Source: a virus
Taxonomy: Monodnaviria > Loebvirae > Hofneiviricota > Faserviricetes > Tubulavirales > Inoviridae
Direction: 5' to 3' (one strand)
Virus record (IMG/VR): IMGVR_UViG_2537561933_000001
Location: 1 to 8,130 of that record
DNA: 8,130 nucleotides
Part shown: positions 1 through 8,130 of the stretch, piece after piece
Layout of the letters: every line of letters begins with the position of its first letter
Numbering within the stretch: the stretch's first letter is position 1
Notes under the pieces: model-generated
Seen by the model: only the letters and a program-made list of their open reading frames with translations
Told to the model about the DNA's origin: nothing
Database searches by the model: none
Made by a program: the position numbers and the translations under genes

Positions 1-1455
1 TTATTGATTCGACTCATATGCACTCCATTCATCGCATACATGGGAAAAGGTTGATTTCAGGGCTTCGTTATCAATCACAATTCGCTGAAGATTGGCCGTA
101 TTAGCCTGCTGAGATAGAAATCTTTTAGCGTAAAGATCAGGCATATGGCTATTGTGACTCCAACCGCCAAGTAGCCGTAATTCATCCTTGGCTTCATCCA
201 TCAATCCAACGATAGAAAAGTCTATGGCTGCCAAGTGTGAGTTGGCCTTAATTTTTTGAAGTTTATCACGATAAATACGTTGAAGTGTTAAATAAGCCCA
301 AGTATGCCGCGTTATATGAGGCGAGATGCTTTCAATGGCATCATAATATTCATCTTTTTTATATTCAGGATACTGCACACTCATAATGTCATCAATACGG
401 GTAAAGATATCATAGACTGCATGGTATGACAGTGGCGGATGTAGTCTTTGGGTGGAAGTGAACAGAAAACTATGGGAGGCTTGAGGGCGGATTTTATGGA
501 TATATATATTTAGAAAATGAAAGTCCAGTTTATCTAATGCCAGCACCCGGTTTGCATAAACATTTTTTAATGAAGGCAATCTTTTTCGTTGATCCGAAAC
601 GTCGTCATCTACTGTGGTCACAATCAGGCTGAACTGATCCCCTCGGAGATTTGGTTTGATCGAATGACACTCCAAAAGCAGTAATTCACTGACACGCAAT
701 CCGTAATTTAAAAGCAATCTGCAAATCAGAAAATTACGTAGCTGGATTTCACCAGCGGGGAAGGGATTGAGTGGGTTTTTCTTTGAAATTGAACCGGGTG
801 TAATGATTTGGTAAAAAGCCATGACCATCTCAGCAGTCAGACTTCGAAAGCGTTTATGGGTCGTGCCATTGTTCATCTGACGAGAATGGGTAAGAGTACG
901 GAATTCTGCCTTATGTATCGATAAACGTCCCGTTAACTGCGTGGCAAGTCGTGTAAGCTCTTTAGGCGTGCCATCTATATATCTCGGCGAGATATACGTG
1001 TTAATCAAATATCTGATAAAACGAATAACCGAATGTACATGCCTGATATTTGTACAACGTTGAGGCGTGGTCTGCGTAGTAGACCTTATGGTTAACGCTG
1101 GTACATATAAATGCGTATTTTCCAGATAATGAAAAAAGGCTGTAAGTTCATCAATGGCAATCAATGGATTGTGGTTCGAGGAATAGAAACTGAAGCAAAA
1201 AGTCACACCATGTTTCTGGTGCCAGAATTCATAGAAAAACTTGAGCGCTTGAAGTGAAGCGGATTGCGTGGCTGATGAACGCAAAGCAAGATGGTCGATA
1301 AGATATATTAACGGATATAAAAGCGGCTGGCGCGTGTGAGTATCCATCAGTGCCCATAAACGCTGCCGTTGGTTGATATTGAGTTGTGTAAGTATGAACA
1401 CGCGGCACTTAACCTTATCAATGGTGTGGATATGAACAAAGTAACCGACAAACAT
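1..1455 (-). CDS. Tyrosine site-specific recombinase / integrase-family protein (about 484 aa from ATG at 1453-1455; ORF track extends to a TTG at 1465-1467)
   Basis: Complete minus-strand ORF with stop at 1-3 (TAA). Translation contains the tyrosine-recombinase catalytic signature in correct order: box I Arg in 'YGLRVSELLLLE', 'HITRHTW' (HxxRH-like box II), and 'LGGWSHNSHMPDLYAK' (LG[HW]...Y catalytic Tyr region). ATG at 1453-1455 is preceded by AGGA (GCAGGACGTT-ATG). Start codon choice is uncertain. Long N-terminal region (about 250 aa) precedes the catalytic domain. Confidence 0.75.
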   Translation of the reverse strand: MFVGYFVHIHTIDKVKCRVFILTQLNINQRQRLWALMDTHTRQPLLYPLIYLIDHLALRSSATQSASLQALKFFYEFWHQKHGVTFCFSFYSSNHNPLIAIDELTAFFHYLENTHLYVPALTIRSTTQTTPQRCTNIRHVHSVIRFIRYLINTYISPRYIDGTPKELTRLATQLTGRLSIHKAEFRTLTHSRQMNNGTTHKRFRSLTAEMVMAFYQIITPGSISKKNPLNPFPAGEIQLRNFLICRLLLNYGLRVSELLLLECHSIKPNLRGDQFSLIVTTVDDDVSDQRKRLPSLKNVYANRVLALDKLDFHFLNIYIHKIRPQASHSFLFTSTQRLHPPLSYHAVYDIFTRIDDIMSVQYPEYKKDEYYDAIESISPHITRHTWAYLTLQRIYRDKLQKIKANSHLAAIDFSIVGLMDEAKDELRLLGGWSHNSHMPDLYAKRFLSQQANTANLQRIVIDNEALKSTFSHVCDEWSAYESNQ

Positions 1456-1546
1456 AACGTCCTGCAAGAAGAAGATAGAGGGGTAGGTAAGTGTATGATT
1501 AATCGTATCCTGTGGCCGGTTATGAACTAAATGACCGACGGACTAA

Positions 1547-1574
1547 ATTTAACATAATATACATTATGCGCACC
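1547..1574 (-). other. dif: 28-bp XerC/XerD recombination site dif (chromosome dimer resolution site), here the prophage/chromosome junction
   Basis: Plus strand 1547-1574 reads ATTTAACATAATATACATTATGCGCACC, the exact reverse complement of the canonical E. coli dif sequence GGTGCGCATAA-TGTATA-TTATGTTAAAT (XerC arm, 6-bp centre, XerD arm) as I recall it; 28/28 match. Lies 38 bp beyond the stop of the 77-aa cargo gene and about 90 bp upstream of the recombinase start. Confidence 0.85.
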
Positions 1575-1612
1575 AATGGTAAGGATGGCGGGAACTGGCG
1601 TTACCGGTGCCG

Positions 1613-1846
1613 TCATTGGTCACAGACCGTAATCCACTGGCCCAGGACGTCTTTCAGGCAATGTTGGCATAAATCCAGTTTTAAGCGATTACTGTCACCA
1701 AAAATTGAACCGTATCCAGCTAAGTGATTAACAGACAGAAACTCATTGAACTCAATGTCATCTACCACCGTCTTCGCATGGCGACCACAGCGATCGCAGG
1801 TCTTCGCACATAACATTACAGTATCGCTGGATGTGAAAAATTGCAT
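1613..1846 (-). CDS. Small zinc-ribbon protein (77 aa, two CxxC pairs), function unknown; prophage cargo next to dif
   Basis: ORF with ATG at 1844-1846 preceded by strong RBS (GAGGAGATAAA-ATG). Stop TGA at 1613-1615. Protein has CDRC (C17/C20) and CQHC (C60/C63) plus C13 and C75, consistent with a Zn-ribbon. No confident family assignment from memory. Confidence 0.6.
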   Translation of the reverse strand: MQFFTSSDTVMLCAKTCDRCGRHAKTVVDDIEFNEFLSVNHLAGYGSIFGDSNRLKLDLCQHCLKDVLGQWITVCDQ

Positions 1847-1919
1847 TTTATCTCCTCGTAATGCTGCCGCGCCGAATCAGCAATAACGCTAAAAAAACAG
1901 AATTGTTCGGCTTGGCCAA

Positions 1920-1960
1920 CCCCTGACACTAACAAAAGCAAGTTTTGTCATTGTCCGGGG
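1920..1960. promoter_or_regulatory. Imperfect 18-bp inverted repeat (15/18) around a 5-bp centre; candidate operator or structured RNA element between the two cargo genes
   Basis: CCCCTGACACTAACAAAA-gcaag-TTTTGTCATTGTCCGGGG; arms at 1920-1937 and 1943-1960, centre 1938-1942. Located in the 117-bp gap between the 102-aa gene stop (1964) and the 77-aa gene start (1846). No convincing sigma70 -35/-10 pair found nearby. Confidence 0.35.
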
Positions 1961-1963
1961 TTA

Positions 1964-2272
1964 TCATATAAACCAATAGACCGTCCTTACGCCATTCTGG
2001 TTATCAATAACATAGCCGCATTGTTTCCTTAAAAATTCTTCTGCTAAATCAATGGCTTTTACAGAAATCTCATAAGAAGGAAGTAAAGTGTATCCTTTCC
2101 CTTCACTGGCAGCTGCTTTGATCGCATCCAGAGTATTATCAATCAGTAACAGAGCAAGTGATGCTTCATTTACCTGAGCCGAAGAACTTCTGGCTGCAAG
2201 TGTCATTGTTTTTGCTTCTTCCGCTGTAATCGTTCGTTCTGCCAGAGCAGATAAAATCCCATAAGAATCCAT
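1964..2272 (-). CDS. Hypothetical protein (102 aa), Ala/Leu/Glu-rich, function unknown; prophage cargo downstream of gIV
   Basis: ORF with ATG at 2270-2272 preceded by GGGG (TTGGGGTAACTA-ATG); stop TGA 1964-1966. Same strand as phage genes and sits between gIV and dif. No recognisable motif. Confidence 0.5.
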   Translation of the reverse strand: MDSYGILSALAERTITAEEAKTMTLAARSSSAQVNEASLALLLIDNTLDAIKAAASEGKGYTLLPSYEISVKAIDLAEEFLRKQCGYVIDNQNGVRTVYWFI

Positions 2273-2297
2273 TAGTTACCCCAATCAATAATGTCCA

Positions 2298-2346
2298 TTT
2301 GATGGATAGCGAGCAGGGCTCACGCACCTACCCGCTATCCATCAAA
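2298..2346. repeat. Perfect 14-bp inverted repeat with 21-nt spacer overlapping the gIV stop codon (potential hairpin: packaging-signal-like or termination element)
   Basis: Left arm 2298-2311 TTTGATGGATAGCG; right arm 2333-2346 CGCTATCCATCAAA (exact reverse complement). gIV stop TGA is at 2342-2344 inside the right arm. No U-tract follows on the minus strand, so it is not a canonical intrinsic terminator. Confidence 0.7.
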
Positions 2347-3607
2347 GTGGACGAATGATATGTGCTGTAAGCAAAATATACATAATACGCTGTTCATTGC
2401 TGTCTGCCTTGCTACTGAAAATCCAGCCTATAAGAGGAATTTTACTTATAACTGGAACTGAACGCTCGGCATTGCTGAACGATGAATCGATAAGCCCTCC
2501 CAATAACAACGTCTGACCATCCTTAATCTGGACTGTCGTCTGAATCTGGCGCTGATTAGTAATAATATCGGATGCCTGATCATCATTGCTGATTGAATCA
2601 GCGCGAGTGTCGATAGTCAGAACTAGTTGCCCGTTACCCATGACAACAGGCGTTACCTTGAGAGAAACGCCAACATCATGACGCTCGATAGTCTGAAACG
2701 GATTATTTACCCCGGCAGATTCGCCCGTTACCTTTCCGGTGATAAACGGCACATTCTTACCTACGGAAATGTAACCAGTCTGACCAGACTGAGTAAGAAT
2801 ACGCGGCGTTGAAATCACCTTAGAGCGTGAATTACTCTGGACAGCACGCAGAGACAGCGCCAACACGTTACCATCAAAAATACCAAAAGACCCGCCCGCC
2901 GTAGAAAGAGCGCTACCCAGTGCAGAAGTATTAAAGCCCCCCGCAACCTTATGACCGGATGCAGACCCTGCCGCAAACGATAAATCAACGCCATCAGACA
3001 AGCTGGTTTCAAACATCAGCGACTGAATGAGAACCTGATCGCGGGCAACATCCACAGAATTGATAAAATCGGACAGAACCGGCAGCAGCTCGTCAGGCGC
3101 AGAAACAATCAGCGAGTTATTGCCTGGATAATCCACGACATTACCACCACCATTAGAATCAAGATAAATTTTAATCAGTTGCTGAACATCGGACGATCTA
3201 ACTTTTGTCAGCTTAAAATTTCTGACCGTAAGCGCCACAGGTACTGGCTGGTAAGATGGCTCAGAAGGAAAAGTATCATAAGACTGGTTATCAGAATCAT
3301 CGGAATCCGAAACCATCTGTGAAGGTAATTTAGACGGCAAAGAGACTACCGCAGGATTGCCAGAAAGCATGACAAAACCGTTAGCATTCAGAACAGACTT
3401 AAAGAAATCATCAATATTTGTTGGATTAACATCAGCATTAAATACGGTTACGTTTCCTTTAATATCAGGATTAACAATAACAGGCTTGCCAGTTTTTGAA
3501 GAATACCACTGAACAAATGAGCGAACAGATGAATTATTTAAATTAACAGTTTCAGCAGAAACGCAGAATGAACAGGCAAATAAAAAAGCAACAATAACAG
3601 AGCGCAT
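2342..3607 (-). CDS. IV: Filamentous-phage pIV outer-membrane secretin (virion export channel)
   Basis: Translation aligns along its length with M13 pIV as I recall it (e.g. GGSFGIF.G.VL.LS.RA...NS.SK..S.PRILT.SGQ.G.ISVG.NVPFITG.VTGESA.VNNPFQTIER; C-terminal SKIPLIG..FSS..DSNE). Start placed at ATG 3605-3607 (M32 of the track ORF), which gives a signal peptide MRSVIVAFLFACSFCVSA and is preceded by AGGAG. The track ORF start at 3700 would overlap gI. Confidence 0.95.
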   Translation of the reverse strand: MRSVIVAFLFACSFCVSAETVNLNNSSVRSFVQWYSSKTGKPVIVNPDIKGNVTVFNADVNPTNIDDFFKSVLNANGFVMLSGNPAVVSLPSKLPSQMVSDSDDSDNQSYDTFPSEPSYQPVPVALTVRNFKLTKVRSSDVQQLIKIYLDSNGGGNVVDYPGNNSLIVSAPDELLPVLSDFINSVDVARDQVLIQSLMFETSLSDGVDLSFAAGSASGHKVAGGFNTSALGSALSTAGGSFGIFDGNVLALSLRAVQSNSRSKVISTPRILTQSGQTGYISVGKNVPFITGKVTGESAGVNNPFQTIERHDVGVSLKVTPVVMGNGQLVLTIDTRADSISNDDQASDIITNQRQIQTTVQIKDGQTLLLGGLIDSSFSNAERSVPVISKIPLIGWIFSSKADSNEQRIMYILLTAHIIRPL

Positions 3608-3614
3608 AATAATA

Positions 3615-3989
3615 TTACTCCTGACAGGTAACAGTCTGTAAATAACGGCCTTTTCTAATAACAACACGACAGGCATCTTTAATATCAACGGAATAACCAT
3701 CTTTAATCAAATCAAAATACTGATATTTCATACCTTTTGCATCAACAAACGTAACGGAAACGTCAAAGCCAAGTTGTGAAAAAGAATTAATAGAAAGTCG
3801 GGGTAAGTCACTGGACGAATCAGGCGTTACCGCCCTCGCCTGTTCAGCATAAGCAGATTTAATAGCTGAGATTTCATCAACATTCTTTCCAGACTGGAGC
3901 CAGAAACCAAACGCAAGCCCCAGCGCCAAAAAAGAAAGCATTAATATAAGACGGTTCGATTTGCGAAAATAAATTTTAGTGAGGCGCAT
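3615..3989 (-). CDS. XI: Candidate pXI (in-frame internal start within gI, C-terminal membrane-anchored portion)
   Basis: In-frame ATG at 3987-3989 (M241 of pI) giving MRLTKIYFRKSNRLILMLSFLALGL..., positionally and sequence-wise matching the M13 pXI start (MKLTKIYLKKFSRVLCLAIGF as I recall). Expression is not demonstrable from sequence. Confidence 0.45.
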   Translation of the reverse strand: MRLTKIYFRKSNRLILMLSFLALGLAFGFWLQSGKNVDEISAIKSAYAEQARAVTPDSSSDLPRLSINSFSQLGFDVSVTFVDAKGMKYQYFDLIKDGYSVDIKDACRVVIRKGRYLQTVTCQE

Positions 3990-4709
3990 ATAATAATTAA
4001 ATCCTCTGTGAACAGAAAATTGACCGTGCGTGATAAATGGTGGCAAAAGCGAAAATGCGCCATGAGGATAATTATCTGTGAACGCTTGTTTGGTATTGTA
4101 AGCAGAATAAAGATATTTTCCTGTATATATCCATTTATCAACAGTGATTGAATTAACATTATCACCATATTTGACAATGCCAAAGTGTACCTTTGGTAAA
4201 GAAAATCTCGCCCCTGAAACCAAATTCATAATGGAGCCAACAAAAGGAATGTTTAATTTATCTGAACGGCGACAATAAACAACATGCTCAGCAAGCGCCA
4301 GACGAGCTTGCTTATCCATTATCGAAATATCCTGAATCAAAAATATAATATCCCAGCCTAATTTTCTGGCATGTAAAAACCAGTCAATAACAGGTTGTCT
4401 GTCTTTATCACCCCATGAGCGGGAATTAAACCAAGTACCACATTCATCAAGTACAAGGAGGCCATTACGGGATTCATCGTAAGATGCATTCCCAATACCA
4501 ATAGCAAGTAAATCATTTAATGAAGGCTTGTCAGGAATGCGAATAACGCGCGTTTTTTTCGCATAACGCCCAACCATAGGCATATTATGCAATTTAAGAT
4601 CAAGATTAGTGGCAACAGGACAACCCTTAGCAAGTCTTTCCTGTATTCTGGAAACACTAACAAGTGTCTTGCCTGAGCCTAATTTGCCTGTTACTACATA
4701 AACCGCCAT
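3615..4709 (-). CDS. I: Filamentous-phage pI assembly ATPase (Zot-like, Walker A)
   Basis: N-terminus MAVYVVTGKLGSGKTLVSV... with Walker A GKLGSGKT; long stretches match M13 pI as I recall it (RIPDKPS..DLLAIG.GN.SYDE..NGLLVLDECGTWFN.RSW.DK.RQP.IDWFLHARKLGWDIIFL.QD.SI.DKQAR.ALAE.VVYCRR). ATG 4707-4709 immediately follows gVI stop (TAA 4710-4712). Confidence 0.95.
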   Translation of the reverse strand: MAVYVVTGKLGSGKTLVSVSRIQERLAKGCPVATNLDLKLHNMPMVGRYAKKTRVIRIPDKPSLNDLLAIGIGNASYDESRNGLLVLDECGTWFNSRSWGDKDRQPVIDWFLHARKLGWDIIFLIQDISIMDKQARLALAEHVVYCRRSDKLNIPFVGSIMNLVSGARFSLPKVHFGIVKYGDNVNSITVDKWIYTGKYLYSAYNTKQAFTDNYPHGAFSLLPPFITHGQFSVHRGFNYYMRLTKIYFRKSNRLILMLSFLALGLAFGFWLQSGKNVDEISAIKSAYAEQARAVTPDSSSDLPRLSINSFSQLGFDVSVTFVDAKGMKYQYFDLIKDGYSVDIKDACRVVIRKGRYLQTVTCQE

Positions 4710-5051
4710 TTAAATCACCCTGTTTGCATAATCAAGAAATTTTTGTTTTAAATCGAAAACAAAAACACTGATACGAGTAACCATAATAACGTTAACACAC
4801 GCCTGAAAATGGTCAGGCAATACAGACGCCATTAAATGGGAGAAATCAGCAGGTAAACCGTTATACATGACCTCAGCAAGGTACTGCATTAAAAGCGTAA
4901 CAGTTGTTGTAATTAATGCGACCAATGCAAAGGCGATTAATCCTGTTCTGGTAGCAAGTCGAGCTAAAAAACTCGCCACATAGCCAATAAACAAAGGAAC
5001 AAGACCAATAAGAAAACGCAACAATGCAGGAATACCTAATAATAAAGGCAT
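4710..5051 (-). CDS. VI: Filamentous-phage pVI minor coat protein
   Basis: Hydrophobic 113-aa protein [14 protein letters not shown]... ending ...FVFDLKQKFLDYANRVI, matching M13 pVI (MPVLLGIP.LLRFL ... IFIFDVKQKI). ATG at 5049-5051 overlaps the gIII stop TGA (5051-5053) in TGATG (translational coupling). The track shows a GTG one codon upstream. Confidence 0.9.
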   Translation of the reverse strand: MPLLLGIPALLRFLIGLVPLFIGYVASFLARLATRTGLIAFALVALITTTVTLLMQYLAEVMYNGLPADFSHLMASVLPDHFQACVNVIMVTRISVFVFDLKQKFLDYANRVI

Positions 5052-6256
5052 CACTCACCCCCTTTGCGAAGCAATGAAGTTAAAGAAGTAAAGACATACC
5101 AGAACGTAAGGCAATAAAAAACCCATGAAAGAACATCTTTAATAGTCAGTAATTTATCGCAACCAATATCAATCTGATAAACCTCTCCGGGAAATATAAT
5201 AAAATCAGAGCAGCCGTTACCATTGGGTAAATTAGGCAGCATAGCACCTTTATTTAAAAATGCTTCCCATAAAGCACCGTGAGAATCCTTTTCAATTCCC
5301 AATTCAGAATCAGCTAAAGTAGAAGCGCCATCTAATTCAGAGTCGCCCTTTCCATAACGAGAATCACCACCTGAAGGGTCAGCAAAACGGCCAGCCCCCC
5401 GCGTAAGATTGTTAATGGAATCGTCAAGACGATTTATATTATTCCTGGTTTGTTCATCGGCATTTTTTTTATCATCTGATGAAGTGTCTTTCTCCGTTAA
5501 TTTATCATGAATATCGCTGGCTATTTTGGGTGAAGCACCTTCGATCGCAGACTGAATATCACCTTTAGAAAGACTGGAACCACTAGAGCCACCGCCAGAA
5601 CTACCGCCACCGGACTCACCACCGCCAGACTCACCACCACCATTTTGGGGGGTTGAGGGTTTATCAGAGGGGTCAGCTACAGCACCTGTAGGCTTCCATG
5701 TTGCAGCGCAAACAGTACCATCACCCTGACAAACAATGACACCAGTAGCCTCATATTCACAGCCGTTATAGTAGATATAGCGACCACCATCATATGAATC
5801 AACATTATTAAATACACCTTCTTCTGGCGGCTTCGCTTCACAAATTTCTTCTGGTGTCGGGTCAGTAGGTTTTTCATCAGGAACAGAACGCTGAATATTA
5901 CCAACAATATAAGCCGTTAAAGACCAATATTTATCCTTCTGCCCTGGTGAATCGCTGTAAGTACAATCGCCAGTAAAAACAAGACGGAATTCAGAATCAG
6001 GCCAGATACCCTCATAAGTTGGTTTAATCCGAGTAAATACACTCTGAGCACTGGATTTAGCACCCTGACAAGCGGAGGCCTGCATAGCAGCATCAATATA
6101 GTAAACCGTTATCTTAGAGCCATCCTGATTGGTTATTTGCTTACTTTCAGCATAGGCAGAACTTTGATAAGTGGATTTAGTAATGCTTTCCCATGACTCA
6201 GCATGTGAAAAAGGAGAAATGAGGACAGCGGAAAGAATTAATATTTTCCTTCTCAT
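5051..6256 (-). CDS. III: Filamentous-phage pIII adsorption/minor coat protein (401 aa precursor)
   Basis: Start placed at ATG 6254-6256 giving signal peptide [19 protein letters not shown]. The track ORF start at 6400 lies inside gVIII and is rejected. Contains an N1-like TolA-binding domain motif ([19 protein letters not shown] vs M13 NATGVVVCTGDETQCYGTW), a Gly/Ser-rich linker [20 protein letters not shown], and a C-terminal anchor domain matching M13 ([21 protein letters not shown]...WYVFTSL vs CRPFVFSAGKPYEFSIDCDKI...MYVFSTF). Confidence 0.9.
5573..5641 (-). repeat. Short tandem direct repeats encoding the Gly/Ser-rich pIII interdomain linker
   Basis: Plus strand ...GCCACCGCCAGAACTACCGCCACCGGACTCACCACCGCCAGACTCACCACCACC... 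encodes [20 protein letters not shown] on the minus strand; repeated units about 12-15 nt. Confidence 0.6.
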
Positions 6257-6266
6257 AGTAACCCGC

Positions 6267-6293
6267 TTTAATAAAGGGGCAACGAGTGCCCCT
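6267..6293 (-). terminator. Rho-independent terminator between gVIII and gIII (minus strand)
   Basis: Minus strand reads A-GGGGCA-CTCGT-TGCCCC-T followed by TTTATTAAA: 6-7 bp GC-rich stem (6276-6281 / 6287-6292), 5-nt loop, T-rich tail. Position immediately after the major coat gene matches the strong central terminator of Ff phages. Confidence 0.6.
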
Positions 6294-6302
6294 GAGTGAA
6301 AT

Positions 6303-6545
6303 TCAAACCGCTTTTGAAGAGAATTTTTTGAAAATACGAATGGCAAGCCCAGCGCCAACCACAGCAACAACAACAGGCCATACTTTACCAATGAGATCAT
6401 TTGCCTGAGTCAACAAAGCATCCATTGCCTGACCTGCATAATCAGTACCACCTGTAGCGCCTTCAGCCGCAAAAGAACTTGCAGAAATAAAAAGCGCAGT
6501 TGAAGCCAAAGCAATTTTATATTTAACAGTAGACAGAATTTTCAT
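6303..6545 (-). CDS. VIII: Filamentous-phage pVIII major coat protein (80-aa precursor)
   Basis: Signal peptide [26 protein letters not shown] then mature [54 protein letters not shown]. Very close to the IKe mature coat protein as I recall it ([53 protein letters not shown]) and to the M13 C-terminus KLFKKFTSKAS. RBS GGAG upstream of ATG 6543-6545. Confidence 0.95.
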
Positions 6546-6564
6546 AGGAATAACTCCATTAAGG

Positions 6565-6660
6565 TTACATTAATCGGTCAGAAAATGATTTAAATGAACC
6601 GACCGCATAGAAAAGGGCAAAACCAAAGGTATAAGCCCCGAAGAAATAAACGATATACAT
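6565..6660 (-). CDS. IX: pIX-like small minor coat protein (31 aa)
   Basis: ATG at 6658-6660 overlaps the gVII stop (TAATG). Hydrophobic product MYIVYFFGAYTFGFALFYAVGSFKSFSDRLM resembles M13 pIX in size, hydrophobicity and C-terminus (..FTRLM..). It is the C-terminal part of the 74-aa track ORF, whose upstream part overlaps gV and is rejected. Confidence 0.7.
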   Translation of the reverse strand: MYIVYFFGAYTFGFALFYAVGSFKSFSDRLM

Positions 6661-6746
6661 TAACGAAAGACCCCCGCAGTAATCGCGCCGAGGCCAAAAG
6701 AAATAACGATGCCAGACGCTATCAAAATTTGAATAACATCGTCCAT
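6660..6746 (-). CDS. VII: pVII-like small minor coat protein (28 aa); not in the ORF track
   Basis: Manually translated: ATG 6744-6746, 2 nt after gV stop, giving MDDVIQILIASGIVISFGLGAITAGVFR, stop TAA 6660-6662. Resembles M13 pVII (..MIQISVVLCFALGIIAGGQR). RBS-like AAAGG 6 nt upstream. Confidence 0.75.
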   Translation of the reverse strand: MDDVIQILIASGIVISFGLGAITAGVFR

Positions 6747-6748
6747 AT

Positions 6749-7066
6749 TTAACCTTTGATCTCTGCGATGCCACCATCGGAAGCAACATTATAAGTTACA
6801 CCTTCCCTACCCTCCATTGACCACGCACGGACATAGACAGGAATTTGAACTAATTTCCCAATGAAAGCATTCGCCTGGTTCATTAGACCTGCGTTAACGA
6901 GAGCCTGAGAAACTCGAATAATAATTTGATCCTGCTTTGTACCACCAAAACCATCAGGTATTTCAAGGCCAATACCAATTTCATTATAATAGCCCTGACC
7001 ATTAACTTTATTACGTTGGCGGGCTCCCAACATTTTACCCTTAACGAAAAGACCATAATTAGACAT
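6749..7066 (-). CDS. Putative ssDNA-binding protein (gV position), 105 aa
   Basis: Assignment by synteny (between gII and gVII) and size. ATG 7064-7066 preceded by AAAGGAAAG. Sequence is not obviously similar to M13/IKe pV from memory, so the function is positional inference. Confidence 0.55.
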   Translation of the reverse strand: MSNYGLFVKGKMLGARQRNKVNGQGYYNEIGIGLEIPDGFGGTKQDQIIIRVSQALVNAGLMNQANAFIGKLVQIPVYVRAWSMEGREGVTYNVASDGGIAEIKG

Positions 7067-7077
7067 ATTACTTTCCT

Positions 7078-7440
7078 TTAATGCCAGCTACTGGCGTGCG
7101 AAATACGGTTGTAATCGAAAATAAAACCTTTCTCATAAATCCATAAGGGGATTTCCGCTGGCTTGGCTTCCAGCGTTCTTATTAGCGGAACAACGTTATT
7201 AGAGTCTGGTGAATCACAATAGAAATTAATATCGATACCGAACGAAAGCAATTCTCTTCTATGGCGATAAAAAGTGTTATGAGGTAACATTTCTTTCATG
7301 TTAGCCCCTTGTTTCCAAAGTAAATAAGTTGACTGTATTTTTCTTGGCAGTTTCGTTATTTTTTCATCACTTAAAATAGCATTCTGATTCATTTCTATTC
7401 TCCCTACATATTCAGAGAATAATTGACGTGGTGTTTTCAT
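7078..7440 (-). CDS. Candidate pX (in-frame internal start within gII, C-terminal 120 aa)
   Basis: In-frame ATG at 7438-7440 (M231 of the gII product) gives a C-terminal product of similar size to Ff pX (111 aa). Only a weak RBS-like GGAA upstream. Purely by analogy with Ff gene X. Confidence 0.3.
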   Translation of the reverse strand: MKTPRQLFSEYVGRIEMNQNAILSDEKITKLPRKIQSTYLLWKQGANMKEMLPHNTFYRHRRELLSFGIDINFYCDSPDSNNVVPLIRTLEAKPAEIPLWIYEKGFIFDYNRISHASSWH

Positions 7441-8130
7441 ATTCCAGTTAGCGCCAAGCGTTAAATTTAAATCAATAAGCTCAGTTGTTCTTAATGTTAA
7501 TTCAATACGTAATTTATCTTTCGTCCAGTCCAGTAACCCGGCTCGTACAAACTCTTCGGCTATCTGGTGCCCTTTTTTACCAGAAACGTGTTCATCATAT
7601 TTTGAATAAAATTTTAGACTCCATCGACGGGAGTTTTTACCTAAATAAACTGTACCGCCTTTCCCACATGCGCGACCATGGCGTGTTTTAGCTTTAAATT
7701 CGGCGGCATAAAGCCATGATCTGACATTTTCCAGCGTAGATAATGAATACATGTAATTAATGTCAATACGTGAAATTTTATACTGACCTGCCATAACGGC
7801 TTTATAAGACGCTAAATCATGAGGAATATTCAATAAGGATAAAATCCTGGCATAGACCGTCAACATGAGCCCTTGTATATCATCCGACCCAACAACAGAA
7901 TGCCCCTGCAGAAACTTGGAAGGATTACCATCAATGTACAAATGTGTCGCTTTACCTTCGCCATTAGATCCTATCGATCGTACTTTCATCGTTGCTTCAT
8001 GCGAGCCGCGAACAGTCAGTCGCTTAACGGTTTCCCACTCAATTGCACCGTCAGCATCAACGCTGACAACACTCCCCGCCGGAAGCGGTTTGTGTGTGCA
8101 AGGGAAAATCCCGGTAAGCCAATCGATCAC
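7078..8130 (-). CDS. II: Replication initiation protein (gII-like rolling-circle initiator); begins at GTG exactly at the window edge
   Basis: 350-aa ORF at the gII position, directly upstream of gV. N-terminus MIDWL... resembles M13 pII N-terminus (MIDML...) as I recall it. Start codon GTG at 8128-8130 coincides with the window end, so an upstream extension or RBS cannot be checked. Stop TAA 7078-7080. Confidence 0.8.
   Translation of the reverse strand: MIDWLTGIFPCTHKPLPAGSVVSVDADGAIEWETVKRLTVRGSHEATMKVRSIGSNGEGKATHLYIDGNPSKFLQGHSVVGSDDIQGLMLTVYARILSLLNIPHDLASYKAVMAGQYKISRIDINYMYSLSTLENVRSWLYAAEFKAKTRHGRACGKGGTVYLGKNSRRWSLKFYSKYDEHVSGKKGHQIAEEFVRAGLLDWTKDKLRIELTLRTTELIDLNLTLGANWNMKTPRQLFSEYVGRIEMNQNAILSDEKITKLPRKIQSTYLLWKQGANMKEMLPHNTFYRHRRELLSFGIDINFYCDSPDSNNVVPLIRTLEAKPAEIPLWIYEKGFIFDYNRISHASSWH

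Follow-up and report, generated by a model that had tools for sequence, protein, structure and literature searches.

A tyrosine recombinase gene beside dif probably belongs to a GInt-family genomic island that uses the XerD arm of Xer sites for attachment

Introduction

GInts (genomic islands bearing three integrases) carry a ginABCD operon composed of one small and three recombinase-like genes (Bardaji et al. 2017, PMC5385486; survey in Idola et al. 2023, PMC10214605). The operon lies at one end and is accompanied by variable cargo, an AT-rich far end, and imperfect repeats of 10 to 17 nt, and excision occurs with staggered cuts of roughly 6 nt (PMC5385486). GInts have been counted in 7.5% of Escherichia replicons and are kept apart from SEs (strand-biased circularizing integrative elements), in which the gene order is intA-tfp-intB-srap and the second gene is non-catalytic (PMC10214605). 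In this study, we analyzed an 8,130-nt stretch of DNA (positions 1 to 8,130 of the IMG/VR record IMGVR_UViG_2537561933_000001; referred to here in its full length as the window), in which a tyrosine recombinase gene lies beside a chromosomal dif site and a filamentous prophage lies on the other side of dif. We assign a probability of roughly 0.8 to the reading that this open reading frame (ORF) is ginA of a GInt-family island whose clade uses the XerD arm of Xer sites as its attachment site. The island is GInt-like in its four-gene overlapping operon at one end, its variable cargo, and its short AT-rich far end, as well as in its 10-nt imperfect direct repeats and site-specific insertion. Published GInts insert at gene ends (ABC transporter, ssb, and ribonucleotide reductase), whereas the island targets a noncoding Xer site; its copies on conjugative plasmids and in tandem arrays represent another difference. 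The att sequences given in the PMC5385486 supplement include no dif-like one, and a search of the openly accessible literature found no report linking GInts, SEs, Tn554, or RIT elements to dif. GInts are already known and counted in Escherichia; their targeting of dif is the new aspect, as far as the openly searchable literature shows.

To our knowledge, dif is the most conserved noncoding site in bacterial chromosomes, and elements that rely on the host XerCD were already known to land there. IMEX elements, the type to which the prophage in the window belongs, resemble the island in that they occupy dif, leave a functional dif, and pile up in arrays. However, they possess a dif-like attP, have no recombinase of their own, and cross over in the central region, whereas the island has three recombinases and a crossover that would lie in the outer XerD arm. 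By the two features that delimit IMEXs (no recombinase of their own and dif-like sequences at both junctions), the island falls outside the group. SEs and Tn554 share with the island multiple recombinases, target specificity, cores of 6 to 7 bp, and a small fourth or third protein. Unlike the second gene of SEs, that of the island (ginB) encodes a product scoring above the Phage_integrase cutoff; Tn554 has two recombinases, and neither SEs nor Tn554 has been reported at dif. EludIMEX-1/EcloIMEX of Enterobacter, which are 25- to 40-kb islands flanked by XerC/XerD-like sites, are assumed to be Xer dependent. We considered them as possibly the same locus and rejected this, given that they lie between setB and yeiP and the Enterobacter loci described below lie in the tam/terminus region.

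Results and Discussion

Island boundaries and the core at dif

The recombinase ORF occupies positions 1 to 1467 on the minus strand, and its longest form in the ORF scan (488 aa) begins at a TTG at 1467. An ATG at 1455 yields a 484-aa GinA, the same length as GenBank protein P0001, and a GTG at 1401, the start in the RefSeq annotation and in most homologues, yields a 466-aa GinA; the true start is likely at 1401 or 1455. A perfect copy of the 28-mer dif of E. coli (GGTGCGCATAATGTATATTATGTTAAAT; 0 mismatches) is located at 1547 to 1574 on the minus strand; the distance to the ATG is 91 nt and that to the GTG is 145 nt. A reading made earlier from the letters alone (the sequence-only reading) had described a tyrosine recombinase of about 484 aa some 90 bp from dif, which is accurate for the ATG start. 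The window edge coincides with the stop codon of ginA, and the remaining genes of the module lie beyond it. The features concerned are listed below; the assignment of the XerD- and XerC-binding arms follows what we take to be established for the E. coli dif.

Positions 1 to 1467, minus strand: ginA-like tyrosine recombinase gene, the first of a four-gene island module (stop codon at 3-1).
Positions 1 to 17, minus strand: first 17 nt of a ginB-like gene (516 aa) overlapping the 3' end of ginA (ATG at 17-15; the rest lies outside the window).
Positions 130 to 696, minus strand: residues of the GinA catalytic domain (Arg, 694-696; His-x-x-Arg-His, 304-318; Trp, 160-162; Tyr nucleophile, 130-132).
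Positions 1402 to 1546, no strand: ginA-proximal island end, including the ginA leader, with two subterminal motifs conserved across genera.
Positions 1547 to 1553, no strand: 7-bp core ATTTAAC, the outermost 7 bp of the XerD arm, common to both junctions and to the empty K-12 site; presumed strand-exchange region.
Positions 1547 to 1574, minus strand: intact chromosomal dif separating the island from the prophage (XerD arm, 1547-1557; central region, 1558-1563; XerC arm, 1564-1574).

Both flanks of the 18-kb island are kept in strain EM20-18-50, in which the left-hand homology to K-12 reaches 10 nt into dif (one mismatch) and the right-hand homology begins exactly at dif base 1. With slashes marking the boundaries, the empty site of K-12 (attB) reads ...GACATG/ATTTAACATAATATACA... 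(in longer form, ...CAGACATG ATTTAAC ATAATATACA...), the distal junction reads ...GACATG/ATTTAAC/TTATGTTGAG... (...CAGACATG ATTTAAC TTATGTTGAG...), and the ginA-side junction reads ...GGACTAA/ATTTAAC/ATAATATACA... (...ACGGACTAA ATTTAAC ATAATATACATTATGCGCACC). The island is bounded by a 10-nt imperfect repeat, ATTTAAC(A/T)TA, which is identical at 9/10 positions and contains the 7-bp identical core. An intact dif is regenerated beside ginA, and the distal junction keeps only 7 to 10 nt of the XerD arm and lacks both the central region and the XerC arm. In complete E. coli genomes, the intact ginA-side junction occurs in 137 and the intact distal junction in 112. The distal 120 nt of the island has a GC content of 27.5%.

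The ginA end carries the motif GTTATGAAC at 1519 to 1527 (reverse complement, GTTCATAAC), approximately 19 nt from the junction, and a second motif, GTAAGTGTATGATTAATCG, at 1487 to 1505. A variant island in strain MB06231 (GinA 95% identical; other cargo) has the same core and the same adjoining 10 nt. Beyond those 10 nt come 10 unrelated nt, followed again by the motif GTTCAT(A/G)A. Because the motifs are kept across an unrelated spacer, we take the end motifs to be functional sites.

Adjacency to dif across genera

Scanning one genome per species yielded 26 related loci, including 22 informative ones (17 plus 5 from Psychrobacter) and 4 that were too short or fragmentary. The end of the element abuts the XerD arm of a host-type dif in all 22 informative loci. 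In the 17 loci for which sufficient upstream DNA was present, a host-type dif lies 92 to 340 nt upstream of the ginA homologue and differs from the E. coli dif by 0 to 7 mismatches, all of them outside the XerD arm, and the element starts directly after ...TTATGTTAAAT. In the five Psychrobacter loci, the element end abuts dif 2.6 to 3.2 kb upstream of ginA, and a P4-like integrase gene occupies part of this interval.

The host genera and species are Enterobacter, Citrobacter, Klebsiella, Pectobacterium, E. whittamii, Buttiauxella, Acinetobacter, Psychrobacter, Shewanella, and Vibrio, and GinA identity among the related loci is as low as 30%. The XerC arm tracks the host taxon and the outer flanks are unrelated, indicating that the dif sites belong to the hosts. 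All ends contain (A/C/G)TTCAT(A/G) approximately 19 nt inside the element, with an AATCA...TTA motif approximately 20 nt further in. Since tam flanks one of the Enterobacter loci, this locus can be placed in the terminus region.

Several individual loci show further peculiarities. In the Psychrobacter loci (L023-L025, L027, and L028; ~4770-8000), the interval from the dif-abutting end to ginA contains a gene for a 425-aa P4-like integrase and an Xre-like gene, and a second end-like motif is present just upstream of ginA; this arrangement may represent a tandem or satellite element sharing one attachment site. The island-side dif of Klebsiella grimontii (L009, 56-83) has a central region altered to CATTGT, and that of Buttiauxella (L029, 7829-7856) has an altered XerC arm, the XerD arm being intact in both. 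These altered sites are probably hybrids left by other Xer-dependent elements on the XerC side. A candidate for the distal end in Acinetobacter (L019, ~16153) consisted of a single motif match and was set aside.

At least 80% of window positions 1 to 1620 is present in 137 of 5426 complete E. coli genomes (~2.5%; megablast). Most of these 137 carriers are without the prophage, and the matches mostly stop at 1577, which corresponds to dif plus 3 nt on the hipA side. In the prophage-free strains AR_0085 and EM20-18-50, ginA is followed directly by dif and then by hipA; K-12 has dif between the yneL pseudogene and hipA and has no island. The remark in the sequence-only reading that dif does not normally adjoin a recombinase gene thus agrees with the yneL-dif-hipA order of K-12 and with the small fraction of carriers. 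Prophage-free relatives were named there as the comparison to make, and in them the gene stands beside dif as an accessory mobile element and not as a conserved chromosomal gene.

Plasmid copies and tandem junctions

Window positions 1 to 1546 are matched at a coverage of at least 80% and an identity of 99.8 to 100% in 19 plasmid records. These are for the most part large plasmids of Klebsiella, one of which carries mcr-1, and they also include an IncF plasmid of E. coli. Three Xer sites were found next to these copies: (i) ATTTAACATAA-GATAGA-TTATGCGTACA, (ii) ATTTAACATAA-CAATGA-TTACACGCACC, and (iii) ATTTAACATAA-CGTACA-TTATGCGTACT. The XerD arm is perfect in 3/3 of these sites, and the central regions and XerC arms differ. 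Since only the XerD arm is constant across the plasmid sites, it represents the common determinant. The distal end of EM20-18-50 is absent from the plasmids; a motif search showed a variant distal end in the plasmid copy.

We also queried genomes with a synthetic 107-nt sequence joining the two ends of the element (50 nt of the ginA-side end, ATTTAAC, and 50 nt of the distal end). This query matches strain PK8276 at 100% over 107 nt, in the form of a head-to-tail tandem: two islands stand head to tail at dif (L039, 18297-20107), the outer copy having been cut by IS1 to ginA and a ginB fragment. Three further genomes contain variant forms of the junction, located between variant islands. In a Klebsiella plasmid, the distal end is joined via GTTAAAT to the end remnant of a different, Enterobacter-type GInt. 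These tandem and plasmid junctions indicate that the regenerated XerD arm is reused and that the sequence beyond the arm is irrelevant.

An insertion sequence (IS) of the ISNCY/ISKpn21 type lies a few base pairs past the XerC arm of each island-bearing plasmid Xer site (L035, 21575-23034; L036, 21575-23080; L038, 4575-6080). The IS1202 family (ISAjo2 and the ISKpn21 group) targets dif and pdif according to Harmer et al. 2023, as cited in PMC11014353. With the IS on the XerC side and the island on the XerD side, two unrelated dif-targeting elements bracket one site. Both are non-Xer elements, but those of the IS1202 family are DDE-type insertion sequences, whereas the island bears recombinases.

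GinA has a tyrosine recombinase fold and is not an Xer protein

Among 19 homologues that are 37 to 87% identical, the residues R254, H380-x-x-R383-H384, W432, and Y442 (484-aa numbering) vary hardly or not at all, and the R, HxxRH, and Y motifs named in the sequence-only reading accordingly align as expected of catalytic residues. The Pfam Phage_integrase model scores GinA at 23 bits, under its gathering score of 27.1. An AlphaFold model of GinA, with a mean pLDDT of 79, is similar in fold to Cre (E=5e-6), XerH, and Tn1549 Int; the alignments cover ~410 columns, which span the core-binding and catalytic domains. By its motifs and its predicted structure, GinA is a genuine tyrosine recombinase, and catalytic activity is predicted.

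In the model, beta strands are located at residues 20 to 28 and 31 to 38, and a long helix (164-194) precedes the catalytic domain. Residues 1 to 17 of the 484-aa form are modelled as disordered, and the low-confidence stretches (116-133 and 190-201) lie within and after the core-binding domain. The N-terminal region had been called unusually long; the two strands, the low-confidence stretches, and the long helix of the model would account for this length. Among simple tyrosine recombinases, the Tn554 TnpA subgroup is distinguished by a pair of additional beta strands at the N terminus and by a helix that is inserted where the core-binding domain gives way to the catalytic domain (PMC8138268). 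Both strands and the inserted helix are present in the GinA model, a structural likeness that is predicted from the model.

The XerC model scores GinA at 18.8 bits (cutoff, 335), and the XerD model gives no match to GinA. Judged from these profile comparisons, GinA is not an Xer paralogue and not an Xer-type dimer-resolution enzyme.

The four-gene module and its cargo

The end of the island next to dif carries a module of four co-oriented genes, encoding proteins of 466, 516, 788, and 144 aa, that overlap by 17, 4, and 1 nt in order. The DNA past position 1, to which the sequence-only reading had pointed for further mobile-element genes and a second dif-like repeat, thus contains three more overlapping genes on the same strand and, at the far end, the distal junction with its partial dif repeat. 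GinB matches Pfam Phage_integrase at 40.8 bits, over the gathering score, and has the R, RH, GH, and Y motifs. GinC has a weak Pfam match and a conserved HxxRH...Y pattern, with R250, H506, R509, H510, and Y541 invariant in seven GinC sequences that are 33 to 67% identical. Cysteine clusters at the C terminus are conserved in both GinB and GinC; the GinC cluster consists of four cysteines, C662, C671, C677, and C683 (L004, 16104-20017). The module is composed of three proteins with a tyrosine recombinase fold and one small coiled-coil protein. The match of GinB to the NCBIfam model GmtY (gamma-mobile-trio) was weak (E=0.003) and was judged not significant. The order A-B-C-D is syntenic in every related locus long enough to show four genes.

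In a mosaic form of the module (L011, L012, and L021), GinA is ~55% identical to that of the element in the window, GinC is 88 to 92% identical, and GinD is 95% identical. The recombinase in the ginA position diverges or is swapped much faster than GinC and GinD, and the target is unchanged.

Cargo differs among strains AR_0085, EM20-18-50, 90-9280, and MB06231 and the plasmid copies. The island has a recombination module of its own, its ends are defined, and its cargo varies; in these respects it corresponds to the second mobile element at dif that had been proposed as one explanation of the recombinase gene. The cargo is often defence-like, including SAVED-domain, nucleotidyltransferase, ThiF/E1-like, and JAB/MPN proteins, restriction and HNH endonucleases, and a DEAD-box helicase; a chromate transporter gene and a second corA were also found (L005, 10700-19000; L036, 5600-12600; L033, 24700-37100). 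Two KOPS motifs (GGGNAGGG) occur in the 18-kb island (L004, 3543-21546), both pointing toward dif and matching the replichore polarity; they are too few for statistics.

Relationship to published GInts

The homology comparison with published GInts was an indirect one, using E. coli Sakai ECs_3512-3509, a ginC-ginD synteny block given in Additional file 10 of PMC10214605. GinA (E=2e-16) and GinB (E=1e-4) match this block, and the matches are distant and colinear. GinC aligns with the block at an hhalign probability of 97.2% (E=3.4e-11) over 412 columns.

Several points weigh against the assignment to GInts or against the recombination that we propose below. GinD has no detectable sequence similarity to the Sakai GinD. 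GinC of the island keeps R...HxxRH...Y, whereas published GinC is said to lack catalytic residues, so that the family assignment is not perfect. The RefSeq accessions of the four proteins were not found in the part of the PMC10214605 supplement that was searched, which is uninformative. The 25-nt joined-ends sequence had no match in the metagenome scan. Excision, circle formation, and integration are suggested by sequence and by analogy with related elements, the indirect signs being the precise head-to-tail junction and the occurrence of identical copies at four different Xer sites, and the positions of cleavage in or near ATTTAAC are not readable from the sequence. Finally, host XerD could participate.

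Proposed mechanism and alternative explanations

According to our model, the joined ends of the element would carry the core ATTTAAC, which matches the outer 7 bp of the XerD arm exactly. Strand exchange within this core would place the island directly outside dif. The outcome would be an intact dif beside ginA and a partial repeat of 7 to 10 nt at the AT-rich distal end. The regenerated site would be reusable, which would give rise to tandem arrays, and the regenerated dif would still be open to XerCD, so that Xer-dependent filamentous phages could integrate on its other side, as in the window. By analogy with the GInts of Pseudomonas, which have been studied by experiment, GinA and GinB (possibly also GinC) would catalyze the recombination. 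The same analogy suggests a circular intermediate, a staggered cut of ~6 to 7 nt, and a requirement for all four gin genes.

An unlikely alternative combines the two machineries: the GInt recombinases would act with arm-bound host XerD as a targeting or architectural partner. The XerD arm is the only sequence common to all insertion sites, the flanks, central regions, and XerC arms being variable, and GinA diverges much faster than its unchanged target, both of which would fit such a partnership. However, XerD would sit on the outer 7 bp of its arm, with which the presumed exchange region overlaps, and the data are explained just as well if a Gin protein recognizes the DNA of the arm directly.

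We regard it as quite improbable that the island is an IMEX integrated by host XerC/XerD, with the gin-like genes serving as cargo or in another role. The position of the island exactly at dif is shared with the neighboring prophage and with the IMEX elements CTXphi, GGI, and EludIMEX-1 (PMC5357621), and the sequence by the core at the distal end, TTATGTTGAG, is loosely XerD-arm-like. Nevertheless, the distal junction has just 7 to 10 nt in common with dif and includes neither a central region nor an XerC arm. XerC and XerD cleave at the borders between the arms and the central region, whereas the crossover here is placed in the outer XerD arm, away from those points. Moreover, the element stands beside Xer sites with three other central regions, which Xer exchange would tolerate poorly, and the four-gene module is strictly co-inherited with the XerD-arm target.

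Two remaining explanations have next to no probability. That the adjacent filamentous prophage encodes the recombinase or is served by it, as the sequence-only reading had also suggested in proposing a phage-associated accessory recombinase, would suit the shared strand and close proximity, but the gene occurs in more than 100 prophage-free genomes and on plasmids, dif lies between ginA and the phage, and ginA is absent from the repeated 7974-bp phage unit of strain KFu015 (described below), the copies of which are split by their own attP-like sites. That it is a host dimer-resolution recombinase encoded beside its site, as XerS and XerH genes adjoin their dif sites (PMC5357621), conflicts with the presence of a near-complete copy in just ~2.5% of E. 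coli genomes, the empty K-12 site, XerC/XerD model scores far under the cutoffs, and the location of the gene within a mobile module with cargo. The related idea of a recombinase dedicated to this site holds insofar as the edge of dif is apparently the attachment site of the element, and fails insofar as an Xer-type dimer-resolution enzyme was meant.

Possible consequences of attachment at the XerD arm

If the GInt reading is correct, there would be a second route onto dif, by which a multirecombinase island docks on the outer XerD arm, dif is kept, and tandem stacking is possible. One site would be shareable by the island, Xer-dependent phages, and IS1202-type insertion sequences. Such a route would explain the recombinase genes annotated beside dif in many Gammaproteobacteria, and plasmid Xer sites would be the GInt route onto conjugative plasmids, including the mcr-1 plasmid. 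The empty site of K-12 would provide an easily testable model for the poorly understood three-recombinase elements.

A far broader and doubtful proposition is that the GInt clade reads the XerD arm, or arm-bound XerD, as a universal landing pad at any Xer site, with the island possibly influencing dimer resolution and phage integration and excision. If true, the landing pads would range from chromosomal dif in several orders of Gammaproteobacteria to the multimer-resolution sites of large conjugative plasmids. The activation of XerD by FtsK needs the nucleotides immediately outside the XerD arm, apparently with no specific sequence (PMC2673442), and it is exactly these nucleotides that the island replaces. 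By swapping them, the island could influence chromosome dimer resolution and the integration and excision of Xer phages at that dif.

The adjacent filamentous prophage

The rest of the window is occupied by the following feature.

Positions 1575 to 8130, minus strand: filamentous prophage, Ff/IKe-like, integrated at dif on the side of the XerC arm (two small ORFs, pIV secretin, pI/Zot, pVI, pIII, pVIII, single-stranded DNA-binding protein, and pII).

All phage genes (1613-8130) are on the minus strand, in line with the remark in the sequence-only reading that the recombinase gene shares their strand. In KFu015, the best-matching strain, the prophage is present in tandem, with two complete units of 7974 bp and part of a third in the retrieved stretch (L001, 21547-41620), and the repeat unit excludes ginA. 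The internal boundaries of this array are hybrid sites, ACATAACGAGTCGTACATTATGCGCACC, with an intact XerC arm and a degenerate XerD arm; the sole perfect dif is that beside the island. In addition, a Doc-family toxin gene, located outside the window, is present in every unit. In the phage collection searched, DNA similarity to the prophage is limited to a match of ~190 nt in pIV to IKe and PEar phages, so that the prophage is without a close sequenced relative in that collection. The prophage is an independent Xer-exploiting element, unrelated to the island.

An Rfam scan gave no match, and shuffled sequence contained promoter-like and terminator-like sites at no lower frequency. The interval from dif to the secretin gene holds two small ORFs, one of 77 aa (1613-1846, minus strand) and one of 102 aa (1964-2272, minus strand), and both are repeated in each phage copy. 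Neither product has a significant family match; the 77-aa protein contains two CxxC pairs and is zinc-ribbon-like in appearance.

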